From Candidatus Latescibacterota bacterium (lineage in GTDB: Bacteria; Latescibacterota; UBA2968; GCA-2709665), in assembly GCA_965219995.1 (NCBI GenBank), contig CBDCOX010000002.1, positions 5,024,001 through 5,088,000 of the forward strand: a stretch of DNA of 64,000 bases, read 5' to 3'. Below are positions 13,800 through 43,823 of the stretch, piece after piece; position 1 is the stretch's first letter; every line of letters starts with the position of its first letter. The position numbers and the translations under genes are program-made. The notes below the pieces were generated by a model that saw only the letters and a program-made list of their open reading frames with translations, was not told the origin of the DNA and searched no databases.

Positions 13800-16454
<2,655 letters not shown>

Positions 16455-17810: not shown

Positions 17811-17882
17811 GGGCCCGTAGCTCAGGGGTAGAGCAGCGGCCTTTTAAGCCGTTGGTCGAAGGTTCAAATCCTTCCGGGCTCA
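17811..17882 (+). tRNA. tRNA-Lys (anticodon UUU), CCA not encoded
   Basis: Acceptor GGGCCCG/CGGGCTC, D-arm GCTC..GAGC, anticodon arm GCGGC-CTTTTAA-GCCGT, T-loop GGTTCAAATCC. Confidence 0.96.
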
Positions 17883-35193: not shown

Positions 35194-36321
35194 TCAGGAT
35201 GGCGGCGTGAGGCGGGAGGCGGCGGTCATTTCCCGCACCACCGACCGGGCATCGCCGGTCCTGTTCAGGATCTCCACCTGCCGCTGGGCCCAGGTCGGCC
35301 TGGCCGCCAGGTCCAGATTTCTCTCCAGGTATGAAGCGCAATCCAGGGCATCGGCGGTCGACTTCAGCTGATCCACAAGGCGCCGGACCATTTCGCGCGC
35401 CGGCTGCAACTGGTAGGTATCGGAGTCAACCAGTTGGGCATCGAGTCCGTAACGGGCGGCGCGCCACTTGTTCTGCCGGATGAGCATCGGGTGGCAGTCG
35501 TGCTGATAGGCGCCGTGGTCGATGTGGTCGGAGAGGTATTTTACAAGGGACTGGATCAGGGCGACCAGGCCCAGGGTATCGTGGAAGTTGCCTGGAATGT
35601 CGCAGATGCGGATTTCGACCGTACCGAATTTGTTGTGGGGTCGAACGTCCCACCAGATTTCCCGGATGGTCTCGATATAGCCGGTTTCCACGAGGTGGTT
35701 CACCAGCCAGACGTATTCACTCCAGTTGCGCATCAGCGGCGGCAGCCCGGCGGTGGGCAGGCCGTCCATGATCTTGGACCGCCAGGAGCAGACCCCGGTA
35801 TTCCGGCCCTCCCAGAAGGGGCTGTTGCAGCTCGACGCCAGCAGGAGCGGCATGTAACGCAGGATGAATTCGCAGATCATGACCGCCTTGTCGCCGCTGT
35901 CCACGCCCACGTGCACGTGCAGGCCGAACGTGACCAGCTGGCGCGCCGTGTCCTGCAGCAGATCCACCAGGCCGGCGTATCGCTTGTTGGGCGTGATCTC
36001 CTGATCGCGCCACGTCGAGAACGGATGGGTTGCGGACCAGAAGAGTCTCACGTTCTCTCGATCGGCAACTGCCTCGAGGGCGCACAGCTTCTCTCTGAGA
36101 TCCGCTTCGACCTCCTTGAGGTTCATGCAGACGTCGGAGTTGATTTCCACGTAACACTGCATCAACTCCGGCTTGATCGTTCCCTCGAGTTGCGGTGGGA
36201 CCCGCGCGATGAGCCCCTGGCTGGCGCTTCGCAGGGCCATCGTGCGACAGTCAACGAGCGCAAGCTCGATCTCCACGCCGACCGTGGGTTGCAGGCTGGG
36301 GTTGAACTCCATTCGGCTCAT
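35194..36321 (-). CDS. YbdK-family carboxylate-amine ligase (glutamate-cysteine ligase type 2)
   Basis: TVGVEIE, FGLHVHVG, WWDVRP, GTVEIRICD, NKWRAARYG; ATGA overlap with upstream gene. Confidence 0.92.
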   Translation of the reverse strand: MSRMEFNPSLQPTVGVEIELALVDCRTMALRSASQGLIARVPPQLEGTIKPELMQCYVEINSDVCMNLKEVEADLREKLCALEAVADRENVRLFWSATHPFSTWRDQEITPNKRYAGLVDLLQDTARQLVTFGLHVHVGVDSGDKAVMICEFILRYMPLLLASSCNSPFWEGRNTGVCSWRSKIMDGLPTAGLPPLMRNWSEYVWLVNHLVETGYIETIREIWWDVRPHNKFGTVEIRICDIPGNFHDTLGLVALIQSLVKYLSDHIDHGAYQHDCHPMLIRQNKWRAARYGLDAQLVDSDTYQLQPAREMVRRLVDQLKSTADALDCASYLERNLDLAARPTWAQRQVEILNRTGDARSVVREMTAASRLTPPS

Positions 36322-37556
36322 TGATCTGCCTCTTTGTCGTGAGTTTTCGGTTCCGACCAGTACACGATCGCGCGCGCCAGAATCTTCGCGCCGATGCCCA
36401 GCGCGCGTTCGTCGATGTCGAAATCCGGTGAATGCAGGCCCGTCACCGGCGTTCCGGGAGCCGAGCATCCGAGGCGAAACAGGCTGCCTGGAACGTGGTT
36501 GAGATAGTGGGCGAAATCATCGCCTCCCATACTGGGCTGTGCGATATACTGGACCCGATCGGGTCCGAGCAGATCGACCGCGCAGTCCCGGATCAGATCG
36601 GTCAGGTCCGGATCGTTCAGGACCGATGGAGGCCCCGATCTGAACGTGATGTCGATTTCCGTGCCGGACGTCCGCGACACCCCCTCCCCGACCTCCCGCA
36701 CCCGTTCCAGGGCCCGGCGGCGCGCATCTGTATCGAGGCTGCGTACGGTGCCCCTGAGCACCGCGCGATCGGGAATCGCATTGTAACGGCTTCCGGCTGT
36801 CACGGAACCGACCGTAAGGACCACGGTATGGCGCGGATCGAGCGACCTCGGCACCGCCACGTAAAACGCATTGATCAACTGGGCTGCCGCGGCAATGGGA
36901 TCCCTGGACTCATAGGGTCGTGCGGCGTGGCCGCCGCTGCCCCGGACGAGCACGTGCATCTCATCGCAATGCGCGGTCAGGACCCCCGATCGATGCCCGA
37001 TGGTTCCGGCGGGGCGCGACGGGTCCACGTGGAGCGCCAGCATCGCGTTGACGCCGTGGAGCGCACCGGCTTCGATCATTTCCAGCGCGCCCTGGTTGGT
37101 CTCTTCGGCCGGCTGAAAGACGGCCCGCCACGAAGCGGGCCAGGGCAAACTTCCGGATTTTCCGGCGGCGTCGAGCGCCAGAGCGGCCCCCAGCACCGCT
37201 GCGGCATGGGCGTCGTGGCCGCAGGCGTGCATCGCCCCGCGCACGCTGCTGCGATAGTCGACGGCTTTGGCGTCCTGGATGGGCAGTGCGTCCAGGTCGG
37301 CCCTCATGGCGATTCTCGGCCCGGACCCGTTCCCGGCAGACTCGGCGATCACCCCGCGTCCCGCGGGGCCCGTGCGGGCGTGGAAGCCGTCGGACGCCAA
37401 CTGCTCTTCCAGATACCGGGTGGTCTCCGTTTCCTCGCCGCTTACCTCGGGATGGGTATGAAGATGCCTCCTGGTCTGCACCATGCGGTCGTGCAACGCA
37501 TCGACGGTACGGTCGAGTTGTGTGATCCAGGACGCCTGATTTGTTGTCGTATTCAT
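36318..37556 (-). CDS. M20D-family amidohydrolase
   Basis: HPEVSGEE, RADLDAL, MHACGHD, FQPAEE, GGHAARP, LHSP. Confidence 0.92.
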   Translation of the reverse strand: MNTTTNQASWITQLDRTVDALHDRMVQTRRHLHTHPEVSGEETETTRYLEEQLASDGFHARTGPAGRGVIAESAGNGSGPRIAMRADLDALPIQDAKAVDYRSSVRGAMHACGHDAHAAAVLGAALALDAAGKSGSLPWPASWRAVFQPAEETNQGALEMIEAGALHGVNAMLALHVDPSRPAGTIGHRSGVLTAHCDEMHVLVRGSGGHAARPYESRDPIAAAAQLINAFYVAVPRSLDPRHTVVLTVGSVTAGSRYNAIPDRAVLRGTVRSLDTDARRRALERVREVGEGVSRTSGTEIDITFRSGPPSVLNDPDLTDLIRDCAVDLLGPDRVQYIAQPSMGGDDFAHYLNHVPGSLFRLGCSAPGTPVTGLHSPDFDIDERALGIGAKILARAIVYWSEPKTHDKEADQ

Positions 37557-37644
37557 AAGGAAAGCAGGACCGTTATGCCTGCATCGGCGGCGGTATCGTA
37601 AGGAATCCCAGGTCGGCACAAAAAAGCCGGATTGAACAAATGAC

Positions 37645-37673
37645 GACGGGACAGGCTTTGCGCCTGCCCCGTT
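37645..37673. terminator. hairpin ending the dap-pck-transaldolase unit
   Basis: ACGGGACAGGC/GCCTGCCCCGT stem downstream of the 37730 stop. Confidence 0.5.
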
Positions 37674-37729: not shown

Positions 37730-39670
37730 CTAACCCGCGACCTCTCTGGCGATGGCGACGCATTTGGCGGCGAAGGTGTCGTAGGCGGCCCGGAACTCGG
37801 CGCTGGTTTTCTGCACCGAACCGAATTCAGGCCAGTCGTCGGGTTCCAGGCCTTTGATCTGCCAGCCGGTGACGTCGATGCCGACGACGTTCTGCAGGAA
37901 GTCCTTGAGGGACGGCGTCAGGTCGTACCCGCGGCAGAAATCGGGAAGTTCGCGCAGGCGCTGGTCCACGCCGGGTTCGTAGGAATCCAGCACCGCGTCA
38001 CGAAAGTCCTCGAGGCGGAAGCCGTCGGCTTCGGATGCCTCCTGGACAGCGCGCGCGTGGTTCGGAAATTCGGTGTTGCACATGTTGGACGCGCCCAATG
38101 TGTGGAAGGAGTCTTCGGGAATGCGTTTGGAAGCAGGAAGGACGTCCATGGAATCCACGATCCACTTTGCCTGGTCGTCCGTGACGCCGTAGGTCTTGCA
38201 AAGGTGTGCGACCCATTTCGGCCGGTTTTCCGGGCTGAAGAAAACCCAGTAGACGCGGCGGGCCACGAGGGTGCCCGCTTTTTTCAGATCTTCTTCCAGC
38301 AGCAGGATCGCGTCCGCGGACTGTCCGGCGGCTTCGGCGGCCTCCAGGACGATGGGGTGATCGAGGGTCTTGAGGTTCGCGTACGCGCAGACTGCCCGGG
38401 CTCTGTCGGCCAGAGATCCATCGTCTTCTTGCCCGACGTCCAGGTCGGCGGCCAGGGCATCCAGGAGGTCGGTCGCCCTGCCGTCACCCGCCCGCGCCGC
38501 CGCCGCGAGGAAGATCTTCTCGGCTTCGACTTCCCGCAGGTGACTCACGAACCTGCCGCCCATATTGGTTTCGTACGTGCGCACGACCTGGCCGTCCCCC
38601 TTTGCGGCGCGCGCCTTGCCCTCGAACGCATCCAGGATCAGCTGGACTTCCTGGGCCACGGTGTAGACCACGGTATTGTTGGAACCGACGGAATTGCCGT
38701 TGAGTGTCGTTGTTATTTTTCGGGCGGCCTCGTGGCTGGCGGCGACCTTGAAGACGATGTTCGGATTCACCCGGCCGGAGCCCTCGCCCAGGCCCAGCAG
38801 GCGGTCGTATCCTTCGAGGAAGTCGGCGGCCAGCCCGTACGCGTTTCGCGCGTCCTCGATACTCGCGTCGGCCTGATCCGCGATGTTGGGATTGAGCTGG
38901 AAGCTGACCATATAGTCCTTGAGGTCCGTATGCACCGCGAGCGGCCTGAAGATGGACAGGTTGGGCCAGAGGGCGATGAGGGTGGCCGCCATGGCGATTT
39001 CGTCGGCGTGGGCCTCGGGGTCCTGCTTCCAGTTGTCGTGCCTCGCGATTTCACATTTGAGTTGTTCGGCAAGGGAACCGTCTTCATCGAATGCCTTTGC
39101 CGCCAGTACAGGGTTGGTGGAGACCTGGCAAAATCCGTAGTGACGAAGATATTCCAGTCCTCGCGCGAAATCGTTGCCGAATTTGCAGAAGTCGTCGCCG
39201 ATCATTTCCCAGTAGACGCCACTGCGCATGTGGCGTTTGAGCAGCGTCAGAAAAGAACCGCCCGGACTTGCCGGCTTCAGGTCCGCTTCGATGCGTTCAG
39301 CGAGGAGGCCGGAGAGGCTGTCGCTCCCGTTGACGGACTTCATGTCGGCGAGGAATTCAGCCACGACGTCCGCCATGACGACCCCTTCGAGATCGTCGAC
39401 GGCGGAACAAACCTGCTTGAGCGCCTCGTCGGCCTCGTCCGCGCCGTACCCCACGATCTCGGCGTCGCGCCCCACAAAGTTCATGCCGAGCCGGATCAGG
39501 GTTCGGCACACCCCGGCGGCCGGGCAATCGTTATTCTGAATCGCCGACAGGAGTTCGTCCACGCGGGTGTTCAGCGTGCCGGGCTGCGGATCGATGAGAA
39601 TCCGGTCGGCGGCGGCGAGTGTCTGCCCGTTTCCGATGGCTTCCGCCACAGCTGAAACGTCGATTGCCAT
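37730..39670 (-). CDS. large transaldolase/class I aldolase-fold protein with N-terminal extension
   Basis: VSTNPVL, VSFQLNP, PNIVFKV (Schiff-base Lys), NNTVVYTVAQ, MGGR, ASKR; SD GGGAGG. Confidence 0.75.
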   Translation of the reverse strand: MAIDVSAVAEAIGNGQTLAAADRILIDPQPGTLNTRVDELLSAIQNNDCPAAGVCRTLIRLGMNFVGRDAEIVGYGADEADEALKQVCSAVDDLEGVVMADVVAEFLADMKSVNGSDSLSGLLAERIEADLKPASPGGSFLTLLKRHMRSGVYWEMIGDDFCKFGNDFARGLEYLRHYGFCQVSTNPVLAAKAFDEDGSLAEQLKCEIARHDNWKQDPEAHADEIAMAATLIALWPNLSIFRPLAVHTDLKDYMVSFQLNPNIADQADASIEDARNAYGLAADFLEGYDRLLGLGEGSGRVNPNIVFKVAASHEAARKITTTLNGNSVGSNNTVVYTVAQEVQLILDAFEGKARAAKGDGQVVRTYETNMGGRFVSHLREVEAEKIFLAAAARAGDGRATDLLDALAADLDVGQEDDGSLADRARAVCAYANLKTLDHPIVLEAAEAAGQSADAILLLEEDLKKAGTLVARRVYWVFFSPENRPKWVAHLCKTYGVTDDQAKWIVDSMDVLPASKRIPEDSFHTLGASNMCNTEFPNHARAVQEASEADGFRLEDFRDAVLDSYEPGVDQRLRELPDFCRGYDLTPSLKDFLQNVVGIDVTGWQIKGLEPDDWPEFGSVQKTSAEFRAAYDTFAAKCVAIAREVAG

Positions 39671-39784
39671 TCTGGGCCTCCCTTCACGTCACATAATGTT
39701 TCCGTTGCGTCCCATATCTCGCGTATTGCGCATCTGCGTTAACGCCGGGGAGCCGTCTGGTACCTGCTTGCTTCGGGAGAACCG

Positions 39785-40591
39785 TTACTCAATGCCCAGC
39801 ACGTCCCGCATGGTGAACATTCCCGGGGGCGCGTTCGCGACAAACCGGATGGCCTCGAGGACGCCCACGCCGTAGGAATCCCGGCTCTGCGCGCGGTGGA
39901 CCAGCTGGAAGATCTCGCCCGTGCCGCCGAAGATGACGGTATGTTCTCCGGCCAGGTCCCCGGCGCGGATGGCGTGGATGCCGATTTCGTCACCGGTGCG
40001 TGCGCCGACTTCCCCGTGGCGTCCATAGAGAGCCACGTCCTCCAGGTTCCGGCCCAGGCCCGCTGCCGCTGCCTTCGCCAGCGCGAGGGCGGTACCGCTG
40101 GGCGCATCCGTCTTGAAATGGTGATGCGCCTCGACGATTTCCACGTCGTACCCCCGGCCCATCATGCGCGCGGCGTCTTCGACGAGCTTCGTGAGTACGG
40201 TAACGCCGATGCTGAAGCTTGGCGCAAAGACACAGGCGACGTCCTTCAGGGCCATTTCGAATTCGGCAAGTTGCTCTGAGGACATGCCCGTGGTGCCCAC
40301 CACCATGGGCCTGCCCGCTTTCCCGGCGGTCCGTGCGGCGTCCAGCGTGCCGTCCGGTGGCGCGGTAAAGGCGACGACCACGTCGGCATTTTCGACGACG
40401 GAATCCAGGCTGTCGACAACGTGGTGACCGGTGCGCGCGGTACCCAGGATCTCCCCGATTTCTCGTCCGATGGCCGGGTTGCCCGGAGCCTCCACGCCGC
40501 CGACGATTTCGAGGTCGTCGGATTCCATGGCAAGATGGGCGATGCGTCCGCACATGCGTCCCGCGATGCCACAGATAACCAGGTTTGTCAT
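39785..40591 (-). CDS. dapB: 4-hydroxy-tetrahydrodipicolinate reductase
   Basis: GIAGRMC, VGTTG, EAHHHFKTDAPSGTA, RAGDLAGEH. Confidence 0.95.
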   Translation of the reverse strand: MTNLVICGIAGRMCGRIAHLAMESDDLEIVGGVEAPGNPAIGREIGEILGTARTGHHVVDSLDSVVENADVVVAFTAPPDGTLDAARTAGKAGRPMVVGTTGMSSEQLAEFEMALKDVACVFAPSFSIGVTVLTKLVEDAARMMGRGYDVEIVEAHHHFKTDAPSGTALALAKAAAAGLGRNLEDVALYGRHGEVGARTGDEIGIHAIRAGDLAGEHTVIFGGTGEIFQLVHRAQSRDSYGVGVLEAIRFVANAPPGMFTMRDVLGIE

Positions 40592-40629
40592 TTGGATTCT
40601 CCGGGTGGTTTGCCTGCGCTACCGGATTT

Positions 40630-42423
40630 CTATGTTCTCAGCCGTTCCTCGAGAGCATCGAGTTCCGTCTGAAGTTCCGACGGCAGTCGATTGCCGAATC
40701 CCGCGTAGAACTCGCGGATATCCGGAAGTTCGGCGCGCCAGTGGTCCGGGTTCACGGAGAGCAGTTCCTCGACGTCGGCATCAGGGATGTCCAGGCCGTC
40801 CAGATCCAGGGCTTCGGGCGTGGGCACGAAGCCGATCGGGGTCTCGACCGCGTCGGCGGTTCCGTCGATCCGCTCGCAGATCCACTTGAGTACCCGACTG
40901 TTCTCGCCGAATCCGGGCCACAGCCAGCCGCCCTCGGCGTCTTTGCGGAACCAGTTCACGTAGAAAATCCTGGGCGCGTTGTCGCCCAGCCTGGCGCCGA
41001 TTTTGAACCAGTGGCTGAAATAGTCGCCCATATTATAGCCGCAGAATGGAAGCATCGCAAAGGGATCTCTCCGCAGCTTGCCCACCGCGCCGGCAGCGGC
41101 GGCCGTGGTTTCGGACGCCATGATGGAGCCCAGAAAGACGCCGTGCCTCCAGTTCAACGCCTCGAATACGAGAGGGACGACCGTGGAGCGCCGTCCGCCG
41201 AAGATAAAGGCGGACATGGGGACCCCATCCGGATTCTCCCATTCCGGGTCGATAACGGGGCACTGCGCGGCGGGGGCGGTGTATCTCGCATTGGGATTCG
41301 ATGCCTTGTCGTCCGACGCCGGGGTCCAGGCACGGCCGAGCCAGTCTTCCAGTTGGGGCGGCGGGTCGTCCGTCATCTCTTCCCACCAGACGTCGCCTTC
41401 CGGAGTGAGCGCCGTGTTCGTGAAGAGGCTGTTCTGTTCAAGGGCGGCCATGGCGTGCCCGTTGGACTTCATGCTGGTACCCGGAGCGACGCCGAAGAAT
41501 CCGGCTTCGGGGTTGATCGCCCGCAGCCTGCCGTCTGGGTCCTGGCGCATCCACGCGATGTCGTCGCCGACACAGCTGGCCTTCCAGCCCGGGACCGTGG
41601 GCTGCAGCATGGCCAGGTTCGTCTTTCCGCACGCGGACGGAAAGGCCGCCCCGATGTAATGTTTCCTGTTCGCGGGCGACGTGAGGCCCAGGATGAGCAT
41701 GTGCTCGGCCATCCAGCCCTCGTCCCGCGCCATGGTTGAAGCAATGCGAAGGGCGAAACACTTTTTGCCAAGGAGCGCGTTTCCGCCGTAGCCCGAGCCA
41801 TAGGACCAGATGGACGGCTCGTCCGGAAAGTGGACGATATATTTCTGTTCCGCGTCGCACGGCCACGAAACGTCGGCCTGACCGGGCTCGAGCGGGGCCC
41901 CAACCGAATGCAAGCAAGGCAGGAAGTCGCCGTCGCCGAGCGCATCCAGCACCGCATCGCCCGTTCGGGTCATGATGAACATGCTGCAAACGACGTACGG
42001 CGAGTCAGAGATTTCGACGCCGATCTTGGAGGTGGGAGAACCGATAGGGCCCATGGAAAACGGGATGACGTACATCGTCCGTCCGCGCATGGAACCGGCG
42101 AACAGTCCATTCAGCGTGCGTTTCATCCCAACGGGCTCGCGCCAGTTGTTCGTGGGGCCCACGTCTTCTTCGTTCGGGGTGCAGATATACGTGCGGTCCT
42201 CCACTCGCGCGACGTCGCCGGCGTCCGAGCGGGCGAGAAAGCTGTTGGGCCGCCGGTCCGGATTCAGCCGGATAAAGGTTCCCGCACGGCACAGCACGTC
42301 GGCAAGCCGATCGTACTCTTCCCGGGATCCGTTGCACCAGCAGACGTCATCAGGTTCGCAGAGTTTCGCGGCTTCGTCGACCCAGTTCAGCAGTTTACGA
42401 TTCGTGGTACGTGCGTTTCTCAT
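40630..42423 (-). CDS. pckG: GTP-dependent phosphoenolpyruvate carboxykinase
   Basis: [49 protein letters not shown]. Confidence 0.97.
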
Positions 42424-42447
42424 TCTACTCCTTCCAGGCTTTACGGT

Positions 42448-43485
42448 TTAGTCTGCGTACGCCAGGTCTTGGAGAACAGAGGCGTCCGAGACGCGGTTTG
42501 AAATGTCCACATTGAAGAACTGTTCGATGGGCGCAAAGAGTTCAGGATTCCTGTCCTGCACGGTTCGCGCGATTTCGAGCACCTGAATCAGACCGTCCCG
42601 GTTCATCAGGCCCAGCGGCCGCCGGCACGGTCCGGCGGGCATGCCGAGGATATTCATCAACGTCTTTATGGGCACGGGGTTGCGGGCTTTGACCTGCGTC
42701 GTTCCGAAGGGTGTCTCTTCGTCCGAAAGGACGGTGACCATTCCGAAGAGGGGCCTGAGCGCATCCGCGAGGAGGTCCGCTTCATCCATATCGCCGTTGA
42801 GAATGGCCTGCGTGAAACGCTGTATGGGTCCGGGGACCACGTTGGACATCACGGAAATGACGCCGGCCGCACGGATTCGGGCGTCGGTCATCATGGCATA
42901 GGTGATGTCGTCGTCCCCTGAGAGAATGTAGAAATCGTCCCCGCAGACAACACGCGTCCGGGCCATGTTTTCCAGGTCGCCCGTGGCTTCTTTGACGGCA
43001 TTGACGTTATCGCAACCGCGGTGCAGGATGGCCAGGTCTTCCGGGAGCAGTTTCGTTCCCGAACGGCCCGGAATGACGTAGGAGACCATCTGAATTTCGG
43101 GAAATGCTTCGGCGACTGGCGCGACGTATTCCCGGCGGATTTCAAGCGAACTGGGACCGTTGTAATAGGGATCCACCAGCAGCGCGGTATCGGCGCCGGC
43201 GTGCGCGGCGTGCTCCGTGGCGCGCAGCGTTTCCTCCGTGGAATTCCCTCCGGTGCCGGCGATGGCGCGGCACTTCCCCCGGGCCAGCGCGCAGACCCGA
43301 TCCGTGACGCTGTTGTGTTCTCTACTGTCCAGGGTTGGGCTTTCGCCGGTGGTACCCACCGCCAGAACGCCGCTGACACCCTGCGATATCTGGAAATCGA
43401 CCAGCCTTTCCAGCCCCGGTTCGTCCACGCCTTTGTCGGCGTCCAGGGGAGTGATGAGAGCCGTATAACACCCGCTGAATAACAT
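42448..43485 (-). CDS. dapA: 4-hydroxy-tetrahydrodipicolinate synthase (long form)
   Basis: GTTGES, PYYN, YVIPGRS, VKEATG, SGDD, GVISV; start ATG 43485 with GGAGG. Confidence 0.9.
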   Translation of the reverse strand: MLFSGCYTALITPLDADKGVDEPGLERLVDFQISQGVSGVLAVGTTGESPTLDSREHNSVTDRVCALARGKCRAIAGTGGNSTEETLRATEHAAHAGADTALLVDPYYNGPSSLEIRREYVAPVAEAFPEIQMVSYVIPGRSGTKLLPEDLAILHRGCDNVNAVKEATGDLENMARTRVVCGDDFYILSGDDDITYAMMTDARIRAAGVISVMSNVVPGPIQRFTQAILNGDMDEADLLADALRPLFGMVTVLSDEETPFGTTQVKARNPVPIKTLMNILGMPAGPCRRPLGLMNRDGLIQVLEIARTVQDRNPELFAPIEQFFNVDISNRVSDASVLQDLAYAD

Positions 43486-43529
43486 GGGGTCACCTCCAGG
43501 TGAAATTTGGGGGAACCGGATTGTCATTC

Positions 43530-43582
43530 AGGGCAAAAAAAACAGCCGGTTCCCGAGGAGAATGGAGGCAAGGCCGGCCGTG
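43530..43582 (-). terminator. riboswitch expression-platform terminator
   Basis: Minus strand CGGCCGG...CCGGCTG followed by a T-run, between the aptamer and dapA. Confidence 0.55.
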
Positions 43583-43602
43583 CAAGGTCCAGCATGGATG
43601 GC

Positions 43603-43779
43603 GCAAGAGAGCACTCCACGGAGGATTCCGTGACAGTCCAGCGGATCTTATCCGAGTGGACCAGTCCCTATCTGCGGCGGAGCGGATTCGGGACTTCGGC
43701 AGGCTTCCCCTTTTGCCGATGCGATGGTTACGCCTCGTTGTCACCGGGTACTATTGAAAACCTGCGCCTCTACCCTTGC
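43603..43779 (-). ncRNA. lysine riboswitch (L-box)
   Basis: Minus strand: GTAGAGGCGC...AATAGTA...AAAGGGGAAGCCTGCCGAAG...GACTGG...GGACTGTCAC..GTGGAGTGCT; P1 GCAAGGG/CTCTTGC; upstream of dapA. Confidence 0.9.
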
Positions 43780-43794
43780 CTGTCGGAAAGCAAC

Positions 43795-43823
43795 AAATTA
43801 GCCAATGGCCCGGCCTGTGTCAA
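43795..43823 (-). promoter_or_regulatory. sigma70 promoter of the lysine riboswitch leader
   Basis: TTGACA-N17-TAATTT on the minus strand, just 5' of the aptamer. Confidence 0.7.

Follow-up and report, generated by a model that had tools for sequence, protein, structure and literature searches.

The locus considered here raises the question of why genes for a phosphoenolpyruvate (PEP) carboxykinase (PEPCK) and for a transaldolase-fold protein follow a lysine riboswitch (L-box) together with two genes of diaminopimelate synthesis. It lies in a window of 64,000 nucleotides (nt), which is the whole stretch of DNA analysed (positions 5,024,001 to 5,088,000 of contig CBDCOX010000002.1, assembly GCA_965219995.1, Candidatus Latescibacterota bacterium); unless stated otherwise, positions are those of the window. 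The genome holding the window comprises 5.4 Mb in two contigs, and its closest public relatives are metagenome-assembled genomes (MAGs) labelled Candidatus Latescibacterota, with a few labelled Gemmatimonadota. An initial annotation had described the locus as a possible undescribed module of lysine and diaminopimelate synthesis in which the Schiff-base aldolase took part. On the evidence collated below, the unusual operon member is PEPCK, not the aldolase: the locus is probably a lysine-repressed unit dapA-pckG-dapB-TALL, with PEPCK as a selected member and TALL, the transaldolase-fold protein of 646 amino acids (aa), as a co-transcribed passenger from sugar-phosphate metabolism. The likeliest meaning is that the oxaloacetate/PEP node is regulated jointly with the synthesis of diaminopimelate in organisms in which PEPCK is the sole link at that node.

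The unit is encoded on the minus strand in the order riboswitch, terminator, dapA, pckG, dapB, TALL, and is composed of the following features:

43795..43823, minus strand: promoter-like site TTGACA-17 nt-TAATTT, read from the sequence
43601..43780, minus strand: lysine riboswitch aptamer RF00168 (Rfam, 76.9 bits, E 2.4e-18)
43535..43581, minus strand: expression-platform terminator, hairpin followed by U8 (fold)
42448..43527, minus strand: dapA, long-form 4-hydroxy-tetrahydrodipicolinate synthase (TIGR00674, 213.4 bits, cut-off 206.15)
40630..42423, minus strand: pckG, GTP-dependent PEP carboxykinase (NF003253, 972.4 bits, cut-off 504)
39785..40591, minus strand: dapB, 4-hydroxy-tetrahydrodipicolinate reductase (TIGR00036, 250.7 bits, cut-off 122; both domains matched)
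37730..39670, minus strand: TALL, divergent transaldolase-fold protein, 646 aa (PF00923, 37.9 bits)
37646..37672, minus strand: terminator-like hairpin of 11 pairs (8 of them G-C) with a T-rich tail, closing the unit (terminator scan)

The intergenic gaps measure 24 nt (dapA-pckG), 38 nt (pckG-dapB) and 114 nt (dapB-TALL). A purine-rich ribosome-binding site precedes each gene, and the terminator scan of the unit returned no terminator-like site within the three gaps. The arrangement described in the initial annotation, with PEPCK between dapA and dapB and the transaldolase-fold gene behind dapB with no terminator in between, was thus recovered in full. The next gene after the closing terminator encodes an M20 amidohydrolase.

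The aptamer was identified with the Rfam lysine model, the check that the initial annotation had proposed. The match spans positions 1–182 of 182 of the five-helix model (gathering score 30) and was recovered again in a search of the whole genome. The leader hairpin (43581–43542) has 8 pairs, is rich in G+C and runs into the U8 stretch that ends at 43535. Leaders of the window and of 13 relatives were folded, and a G+C-rich hairpin followed by a run of 5–8 U was found between aptamer and dapA in 14 of 14. From these folds, the leader is predicted to contain an expression platform by which the bound ligand could control the genes. Promoter-like sites were judged against a TTGACA/TATAAT-type consensus: the −35 element (43823–43818) is perfect, the −10 element TAATTT (43800–43795) is weak with 3 of 6 matches, and the site is absent from the list of the consensus scan. 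A distant relative (G065) has TTGACA-17 nt-TAAATT at the equivalent place before its aptamer. The promoter, aptamer and terminator that had been read in front of dapA were accordingly all found again, the promoter with a weak −10 element. The genome contains a second lysine riboswitch (85.7 bits), located outside the window at G000:C2:1081388-1081573 (locus L001) upstream of a 360-aa asd-like open reading frame (ORF).

The relatives were assigned to families, among them f1–f4, and to numbered genera (g1, g2 and so on), the window itself belonging to f1 and g1. The gene-neighbourhood analysis that had been suggested for this locus showed that the dapA-PEPCK-dapB linkage is kept across relatives in three families. 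Seventeen genome loci with TALL comprised 14 with the order dapA-pckG-dapB-TALL, one with dapA-dapB-TALL and two with TALL alone. Among 20 loci from other genera, the full four-gene order was present in four (f1, genera g3–g5), a pckG remnant between dapA and dapB in one (G044), dapA-dapB-TALL or dapB-TALL in 12 (f2) and TALL alone in three (f3). Both g2 genomes (f1), which are without TALL, keep L-box-dapA-pckG-dapB. In all 18 of the other f1 genomes with a whole pckG and TALL, the two genes lie 0.9–1.2 kb apart on one contig.

The position between dapA and dapB is occupied by PEPCK of either class in 25 of the genomes examined. G065 (f2, genus g8) carries, in this order, an L-box, a terminator, a long-form dapA, the ATP-dependent pckA (TIGR00224, 725.7 bits) and dapB, the dapA-pckA gap being ~10 nt. 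G038 and G039 (f3) have the order L-box-dapA-pckA(ATP)-dapB, and G037 (f3, another order) has dapA-pckG-dapB with no L-box detected. The operon pckA of G038 (L154, 3711-5311) matches in two frames (residues 3–455 and 455–536), the result of a frameshift or of a fault in the assembly. The operon pckA genes of G065, G038 and G039 group together in one clade (100/100); their identity to the pckA that stands alone in other f2 genomes is 48–53%, and it is this different, stand-alone pckA that relatives with an empty slot carry. In three f4 genomes, dapA-dapB stands without PEPCK and without an L-box. Some relatives of the GTP-dependent enzyme are found in open frames of 1024–1044 aa (G092:C366 and G093:C294; protein P0121) and may be fusions.

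The scan for L-boxes covered 29 dapA loci of relatives, with L018 and several f2 loci left out; in 24 of the 29 an L-box was found ahead of dapA, and those without one are the loci of G037, G084 and the three f4 genomes. Across the order, L-boxes were present in 51 of 53 genomes, most of which contain two. G084 and G091 (f2, genus g11; L060 and L056) are closed genomes without a lysine riboswitch, their kin having two; dapB and TALL are separated by ~2.8 kb in G084, and dapA is not upstream of dapB-TALL in G091. In the PEPCK tree, G037 is placed with g3 and g5 (85/86) within an f1 clade whose branching is not resolved; its DapB forms a long branch outside f1 and f2, and its DapA has no resolved placement. 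On these sequences, the trees do not separate an ancient triad with later loss from transfer between lineages.

The carbon of diaminopimelate is drawn from aspartate semialdehyde, which is formed from oxaloacetate, and from pyruvate, which is formed from PEP. The enzymes that connect these pools were compared. In the genome holding the window, pckG is the single PF00821 match, and the N- and C-terminal domains of its product (PF00821 and PF17297) match their profiles end to end. No match was obtained in this genome to PF01293 (ATP-PEPCK), PF00311 (PEP carboxylase), PF02436 (PYC_OADA) or PF00390 (malic enzyme), and genes of the pyruvate phosphate dikinase (PPDK) type are present. One of these, a PPDK/PEP-utilising gene of roughly 900 aa, lies in the window at ~15342-16373 on the minus strand (G000:C2:5039342-5040373; PF01326, 141 bits), and a second PPDK-type gene is located at C2:1691936. 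The counts for the 21 f1 and 31 f2 relatives, from which the window's own genome is excluded, were as follows:

GTP-PEPCK: f1, 21 of 21 (G044 with a remnant only); f2, 0 of 31
ATP-PEPCK: f1, 1 of 21 (one weak match, below cut-off); f2, 28 of 31
PYC_OADA domain: f1, 0 of 21; f2, 29 of 31
PEP carboxylase: f1, 1 of 21 (G044); f2, 6 of 31

Sorted by the occupancy of the slot, PF02436 was found in none of the 25 genomes with PEPCK between dapA and dapB. Of the f2 genomes whose slot is empty, by contrast, 29 of 30 have it, and the one without it carries PEP carboxylase. The PYC_OADA domain was not found in G037, G038, G039 or G065, and is present in G154, whose pckG lies elsewhere. G044 is the sole f1 genome in which pckG is reduced to a remnant and also the sole f1 genome with a PEP carboxylase match; this enzyme is 55–61% identical to an f2 enzyme, and the flanks on its contig have no close match in the window's genome. 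The pattern of slot occupancy supports a lysine-coupled control of the oxaloacetate/PEP node. The proposal of the initial annotation that PEPCK is lysine-controlled in order to balance this precursor supply has thereby gained comparative support: the slot holds PEPCK of two classes in three families, and PYC_OADA is lacking where it does.

The same comparison bears on whether PEPCK and TALL might have entered the operon by chance rearrangement and been kept by inertia, with expression from internal promoters or read-through and with a lysine control that is non-adaptive. Such an origin is considered unlikely, and it has several observations in its favour. Unrelated genes that have entered L-box operons, in most cases with a split of the operon, are described in a survey of lysine riboswitches (PMC5584792). 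The pckG gene has decayed or been lost in some lineages: a remnant (residues 168–244) stands between dapA and dapB in L063 (G044), L075 and L076, the gene is in two overlapping pieces in L078, and one in-frame TGA occurs in G045 (C69:12179-13927). The pckG-dapB spacers of relatives vary from ~20 to 270 nt, and the triad of G037 stands without an L-box. Against this, the presence of two PEPCK classes at one position in different lineages is hard to explain by chance, the operon-type pckA forms a clade separate from the stand-alone genes, and a filled slot goes along with a lack of the pyruvate-carboxylase domain. The gaps are also tight, both here (24 and 38 nt, in contrast to the operon-splitting insertions described in the main text of PMC5584792) and between dapA and pckA in G065. 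Finally, the sole candidate for an internal promoter, TTGCGA-17 nt-TATAAT within pckG, was rejected because TATAAT is part of a conserved coding stretch for which other genera use different codons.

Under the preferred reading of a lysine-repressed unit, a promoter, a lysine riboswitch acting by transcription termination, four genes and a strong terminator would make up one transcription unit. In this class, PEPCK would belong to the dap operon as an integral part under selection rather than as a stray insertion, and would be the only enzyme found in these genomes that links oxaloacetate with PEP/pyruvate. Its position behind the L-box would couple its synthesis to lysine demand, so that under lysine shortage the precursor node would rise along with DapA and DapB, and read-through would presumably supply basal PEPCK for other needs. 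TALL would be a divergent Schiff-base enzyme of the transaldolase family whose gene joined the unit behind dapB in the ancestor of f1 and f2 and has been carried along in the transcript as a passenger. A stronger proposal, which is put forward only tentatively, is that PEPCK is obligatory in the L-box dap operon as the sole anaplerotic enzyme, running from PEP and CO2 to oxaloacetate, and that the riboswitch directly governs the supply of oxaloacetate to the whole aspartate family. The need might then have been strong enough for one type of PEPCK, ATP- or GTP-dependent, to replace the other at this exact position.

The first gene of the unit required a correction of its start. The ATG at 43527 lacks a ribosome-binding site, and the ATG at 43485 (Met15) is preceded by GGAGG. 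Because of this motif, and because DapA of relatives begins at the position equivalent to Met15, the true start is probably 43485, which would give a DapA of 345 aa rather than 359. All of the best 60 solved relatives listed are dihydrodipicolinate synthases (DHDPS), with a best E of 1.8e-50. The alignment with the solved DHDPS 2yxg contains a 14-residue insertion in DapA where the initial annotation had placed it, and the TIGR00674 match stops at residue 315 of 359. In the alignment with the genome's canonical paralogue, the long form contains an insert of ~18 residues and is extended by ~25 at its C terminus; 15 orthologues, drawn from three families, keep both features. The claim of a long-form DapA with an insertion and an extension was therefore upheld. 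Across 16 sequences, the residues K179 (in the VKEATG segment), Y150, R155, Y121 and T59 do not vary and T60 hardly does, and all of them align with those of solved DHDPS; they presumably correspond to the Schiff-base lysine and the catalytic Tyr, Thr and Arg residues of the E. coli enzyme. The pass on TIGR00674 (213.4 versus 206.15) is narrow, and the 'HpaI-NOT-DapA' exception model scored 161.5 where 396.7 is demanded. Under the stronger proposal above, the insert and the tail could be adaptations to the PEPCK module. A prediction of the DapA-PckG complex returned a score of 0.00, which speaks neither for nor against binding.

The canonical paralogue of 312 aa (G000:C2:358486-359334; locus L023, 1450-2388) is 32% identical to the long form and sits between rlmD-like and adenylate-kinase-like genes. 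It scores higher on TIGR00674 than the long form (230.2 versus 213.4 bits), and it could be argued, also from the conserved insert and extension, that it is the housekeeping DHDPS and that long-form DapA, PEPCK and DapB serve a lysine-responsive side branch. This is regarded as highly improbable. The single dapB of the genome is located in this operon, the long form keeps all catalytic residues checked and has only DHDPS among its best 60 solved relatives listed, and the riboswitch class senses lysine. In addition, long-form dapA adjoins dapB in all lineages checked within the class, the three riboswitch-less f4 genomes among them.

The remaining steps of lysine synthesis were sought in the whole genome. 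The search found lysC (236.6 bits, cut-off 208.7), dapL for LL-diaminopimelate aminotransferase (550 bits, cut-off 364.7) and dapF (218.9 bits, cut-off 114.65). The asd-like ORF behind the second L-box was assigned by eye, and the sole lysA candidate reached 258 bits, below the cut-off of 297.9, with a match over positions 10–417 of the 417-position model. Judged by these matches, the DapL-type aminotransferase pathway is complete (lysC, asd, dapA, dapB, dapL, dapF, lysA). Because this route appears complete, TALL would fill no gap in it, and the suggestion of the initial annotation that the aldolase supplies a missing step of lysine synthesis was not confirmed. The initial annotation had named three findings that would jointly speak against its module, namely internal promoters uncoupling pckG or the aldolase gene, a linkage that is not conserved and a complete standard pathway. 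The last of these was found, the linkage proved to be conserved, and the only internal promoter candidate was the coding motif described above.

TALL consists of a helical N-terminal domain of ~150 aa followed by a transaldolase barrel with ~160 residues of insertions. Its PF00923 match (gathering score 27) is confined to residues 173–344, which correspond to profile positions 13–148 of 285 only. In profile comparisons, only the lysine-bearing strand and the strand that follows align with 3r5e and with the organism's own short transaldolase (E 0.039 and 0.064). Family membership is marginal at the sequence level, and the predicted fold carries the argument. An AlphaFold2 (AF2) model of TALL was obtained with a pLDDT of 88.4. 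Residues 151–638 of the model superimposed on 7oey with a Z score of 31.4 and a root-mean-square deviation (rmsd) of 2.7 over 330 of 350 residues; Z was 30.4 for 3r5e, 25–26 for TalB and human transaldolase, and ~16 for short transaldolases and the sulfofructose transaldolase. K308 aligns with the segment of the Schiff-base lysine on the fourth barrel strand and is invariant in 26 sequences. The general acid/base residue is Glu in transaldolases and Gln in fructose-6-phosphate aldolase; the invariant Q258 of TALL would occupy this place, going by the order of predicted strands only. Compared with the transaldolases of E. coli (TalB), N. gonorrhoeae and C. glutamicum, TALL has the same barrel fold, and the lysine-bearing and the next strand align. 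It differs from classical transaldolases and fructose-6-phosphate aldolase in its length (646 versus 220–360 aa), in its extra N-terminal domain and in a sequence identity of 17–20%. The curated naming models TIGR00876 and NF002881 scored 21.8 and 26.6, against cut-offs of 233.75 and 367. Because these scores are so far below the cut-offs, the predicted protein is not to be named transaldolase (EC 2.2.1.2). The nearest clusters in the ESM Atlas are uncharacterised TAL_FSA proteins of 582–696 aa, which offer no clue to function.

Two roles in central metabolism were considered for TALL and rejected. It is not the sole transaldolase, as a normal transaldolase-family gene of 222 aa (203.7 bits) is present elsewhere in the genome, and it is not a missing fructose-1,6-bisphosphate (FBP) aldolase, as a class I aldolase (440.7 bits) was found; a class II FBP aldolase was not found in the genome search.

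When 168 genomes of the phylum were searched with a profile, TALL was found in 50. Without the window's own genome, the distribution was 19 of 21 in f1, 27 of 31 in f2, 3 of 3 in f3, 0 of 76 in f4 and none in other families. Among the 120 relatives listed, TALL is 59–91% identical over its full length, with many invariant residues. It stands away from dap genes in the f3 genomes and in a MAG labelled Poribacteria. In a metagenome set of 80 loci, dapB adjoins TALL in 14, in all of which TALL is at least 61% identical; the other 66 showed no dapA or dapB in the flanks seen, many of these contigs being short. In 70 loci with TALL not beside dap genes, myo-inositol-1-phosphate synthase is encoded directly upstream on the same strand in 15. 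Further neighbours are a cyclophilin-like protein (11), a HAD phosphatase (9), a UxaE-like epimerase-family protein (9), a MalK-type ATPase (9), an ABC permease (8), DUF4432 (9), a Zn-dependent dehydrogenase (7) and FBPase (7). More distant relatives (45–50% identity; L122, L130, L111, L113 and others) cluster with myo-inositol-1-phosphate synthase, DUF498, the cyclophilin-like protein and DUF4432, and such clusters may encode an undescribed sugar or cyclitol pathway. Taken together, the neighbours of TALL point to sugar-phosphate or cyclitol chemistry, not to lysine synthesis.

These data also bear on the four-gene lysine/diaminopimelate module, in which TALL would work in an undescribed pathway, for instance by using aspartate semialdehyde or supplying a precursor. 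The adjacency of dapB and TALL across f1 and f2 (15 of 17, 17 of 20 and 14 of 80 metagenome loci), the 114-nt gap free of a terminator-like site, the contigs from RNA libraries that bridge dapB and TALL (see below) and the conservation of the full-length protein with its Schiff-base lysine would all be expected of such a module. It is nevertheless the least probable of the explanations considered and very improbable in itself, given the complete DapL pathway, the genus g2 with its L-box operon but no TALL, the absence of dap genes near TALL in f3, in the Poribacteria-labelled MAG and, as far as the often short contigs extend, in the 66 metagenome loci, and the recurrence there of sugar and inositol-phosphate genes. 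The part of the initial annotation that had made the aldolase a member of the lysine module or a supplier of precursors found no support: operon-keeping g2 lacks the gene, in f3 it lies away from dap, and its distant relatives occur in sugar and inositol-phosphate contexts.

Indirect evidence on transcription was drawn from four metatranscriptome runs of one marine study, the contigs of which are 90–95% like the window and hence from a relative. Single contigs bridge the leader and dapA (43136–43747), dapA and pckG (41814–42664), and pckG, dapB and TALL (39178–40802), as would be expected of a co-transcribed unit. Two runs each contain one contig that connects 40310 directly with 42629, which skips 2318 nt, with only 24 letters on the shorter side; this join is probably from another organism or an artefact.

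Several points weigh against the preferred reading of a lysine-repressed unit with PEPCK as its selected member. The RNA contigs, which stem from the relative in a single study, show neither strand nor ends nor a single transcript, and may include DNA carry-over. Internal promoters are possible, and the 114-nt gap before TALL and the spacers of up to ~270 nt in relatives leave room for them. Two f2 genomes do without any L-box, and the triad of G037, standing without a detectable one, indicates a linkage independent of the riboswitch. Few independent events, perhaps three or four, lie behind the correlation between a filled slot and missing pyruvate carboxylase, the genomes compared being kin, and the contig with the PEP carboxylase of G044 could not be tied to that organism. 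A cell whose sole PEPCK answers to lysine would seem to put its gluconeogenesis and anaplerosis at risk. Lastly, lysA is below its curated cut-off, and a second DapA-class gene above the TIGR00674 cut-off exists elsewhere in the genome. With these points taken into account, the reading is still held to be the probable one.

Other features of the window were noted. The M20 amidohydrolase gene (36318-37619, minus strand; TIGR01891, 341.8 bits) is followed by a gene for a YbdK/GCS2 carboxylate-amine ligase (35194-36468, minus strand); the longest ORFs of the two overlap by ~150 nt, and the pair is found downstream of TALL in genus g1 only. A tRNA gene is located at 17811-17882 on the plus strand (Rfam, 74.2 bits).

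The control of dap genes by L-boxes is textbook knowledge, and riboswitch regulons are usually read as comprising the biosynthesis and transport of the ligand. L-box operons such as lysC-asd-dapA-dapB of Firmicutes and Thermotogae have in common with the present unit the aptamer family, a terminator-type platform, the control of dapA and dapB and a second copy before asd; the difference lies in the PEPCK between dapA and dapB, which is kept here across three families. Non-orthologous displacement between ATP- and GTP-dependent PEPCK is known among bacteria, and the genomes compared here likewise carry one class or the other. Here, one class took the place of the other at a single, constant position within an amino-acid operon under riboswitch control. 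In C. glutamicum, engineered lysine riboswitches have been used on citrate synthase. As described in PMC13577120, such riboswitches control lysC and hom in lysine-producing Corynebacterium glutamicum. The present unit likewise places a lysine-responsive RNA before a gene of precursor flux, with the distinction that it is natural and conserved and that its target is PEPCK. According to a survey of 2785 genomes (PMC5584792), L-boxes outside Firmicutes and Gammaproteobacteria mainly precede biosynthetic operons; the words carboxykinase, pck and transaldolase do not occur in its main text. In the open-access text searched, no natural lysine riboswitch operon with PEPCK was found described; only engineering uses and unrelated papers turned up.

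For the biology of these bacteria, the findings suggest that a lysine riboswitch operon took in the branch-point enzyme PEPCK and kept it through a swap of enzyme class, as a natural counterpart of the engineered designs. They raise the question of which way PEPCK runs in bacteria without pyruvate carboxylase, PEP carboxylase and malic enzyme, and of how far an amino-acid sensor commands central metabolism. They also draw attention to the 640-aa transaldolase-fold enzymes as a family that is large, well conserved and uncharacterised, and whose gene neighbours point to inositol- and sugar-phosphate chemistry.

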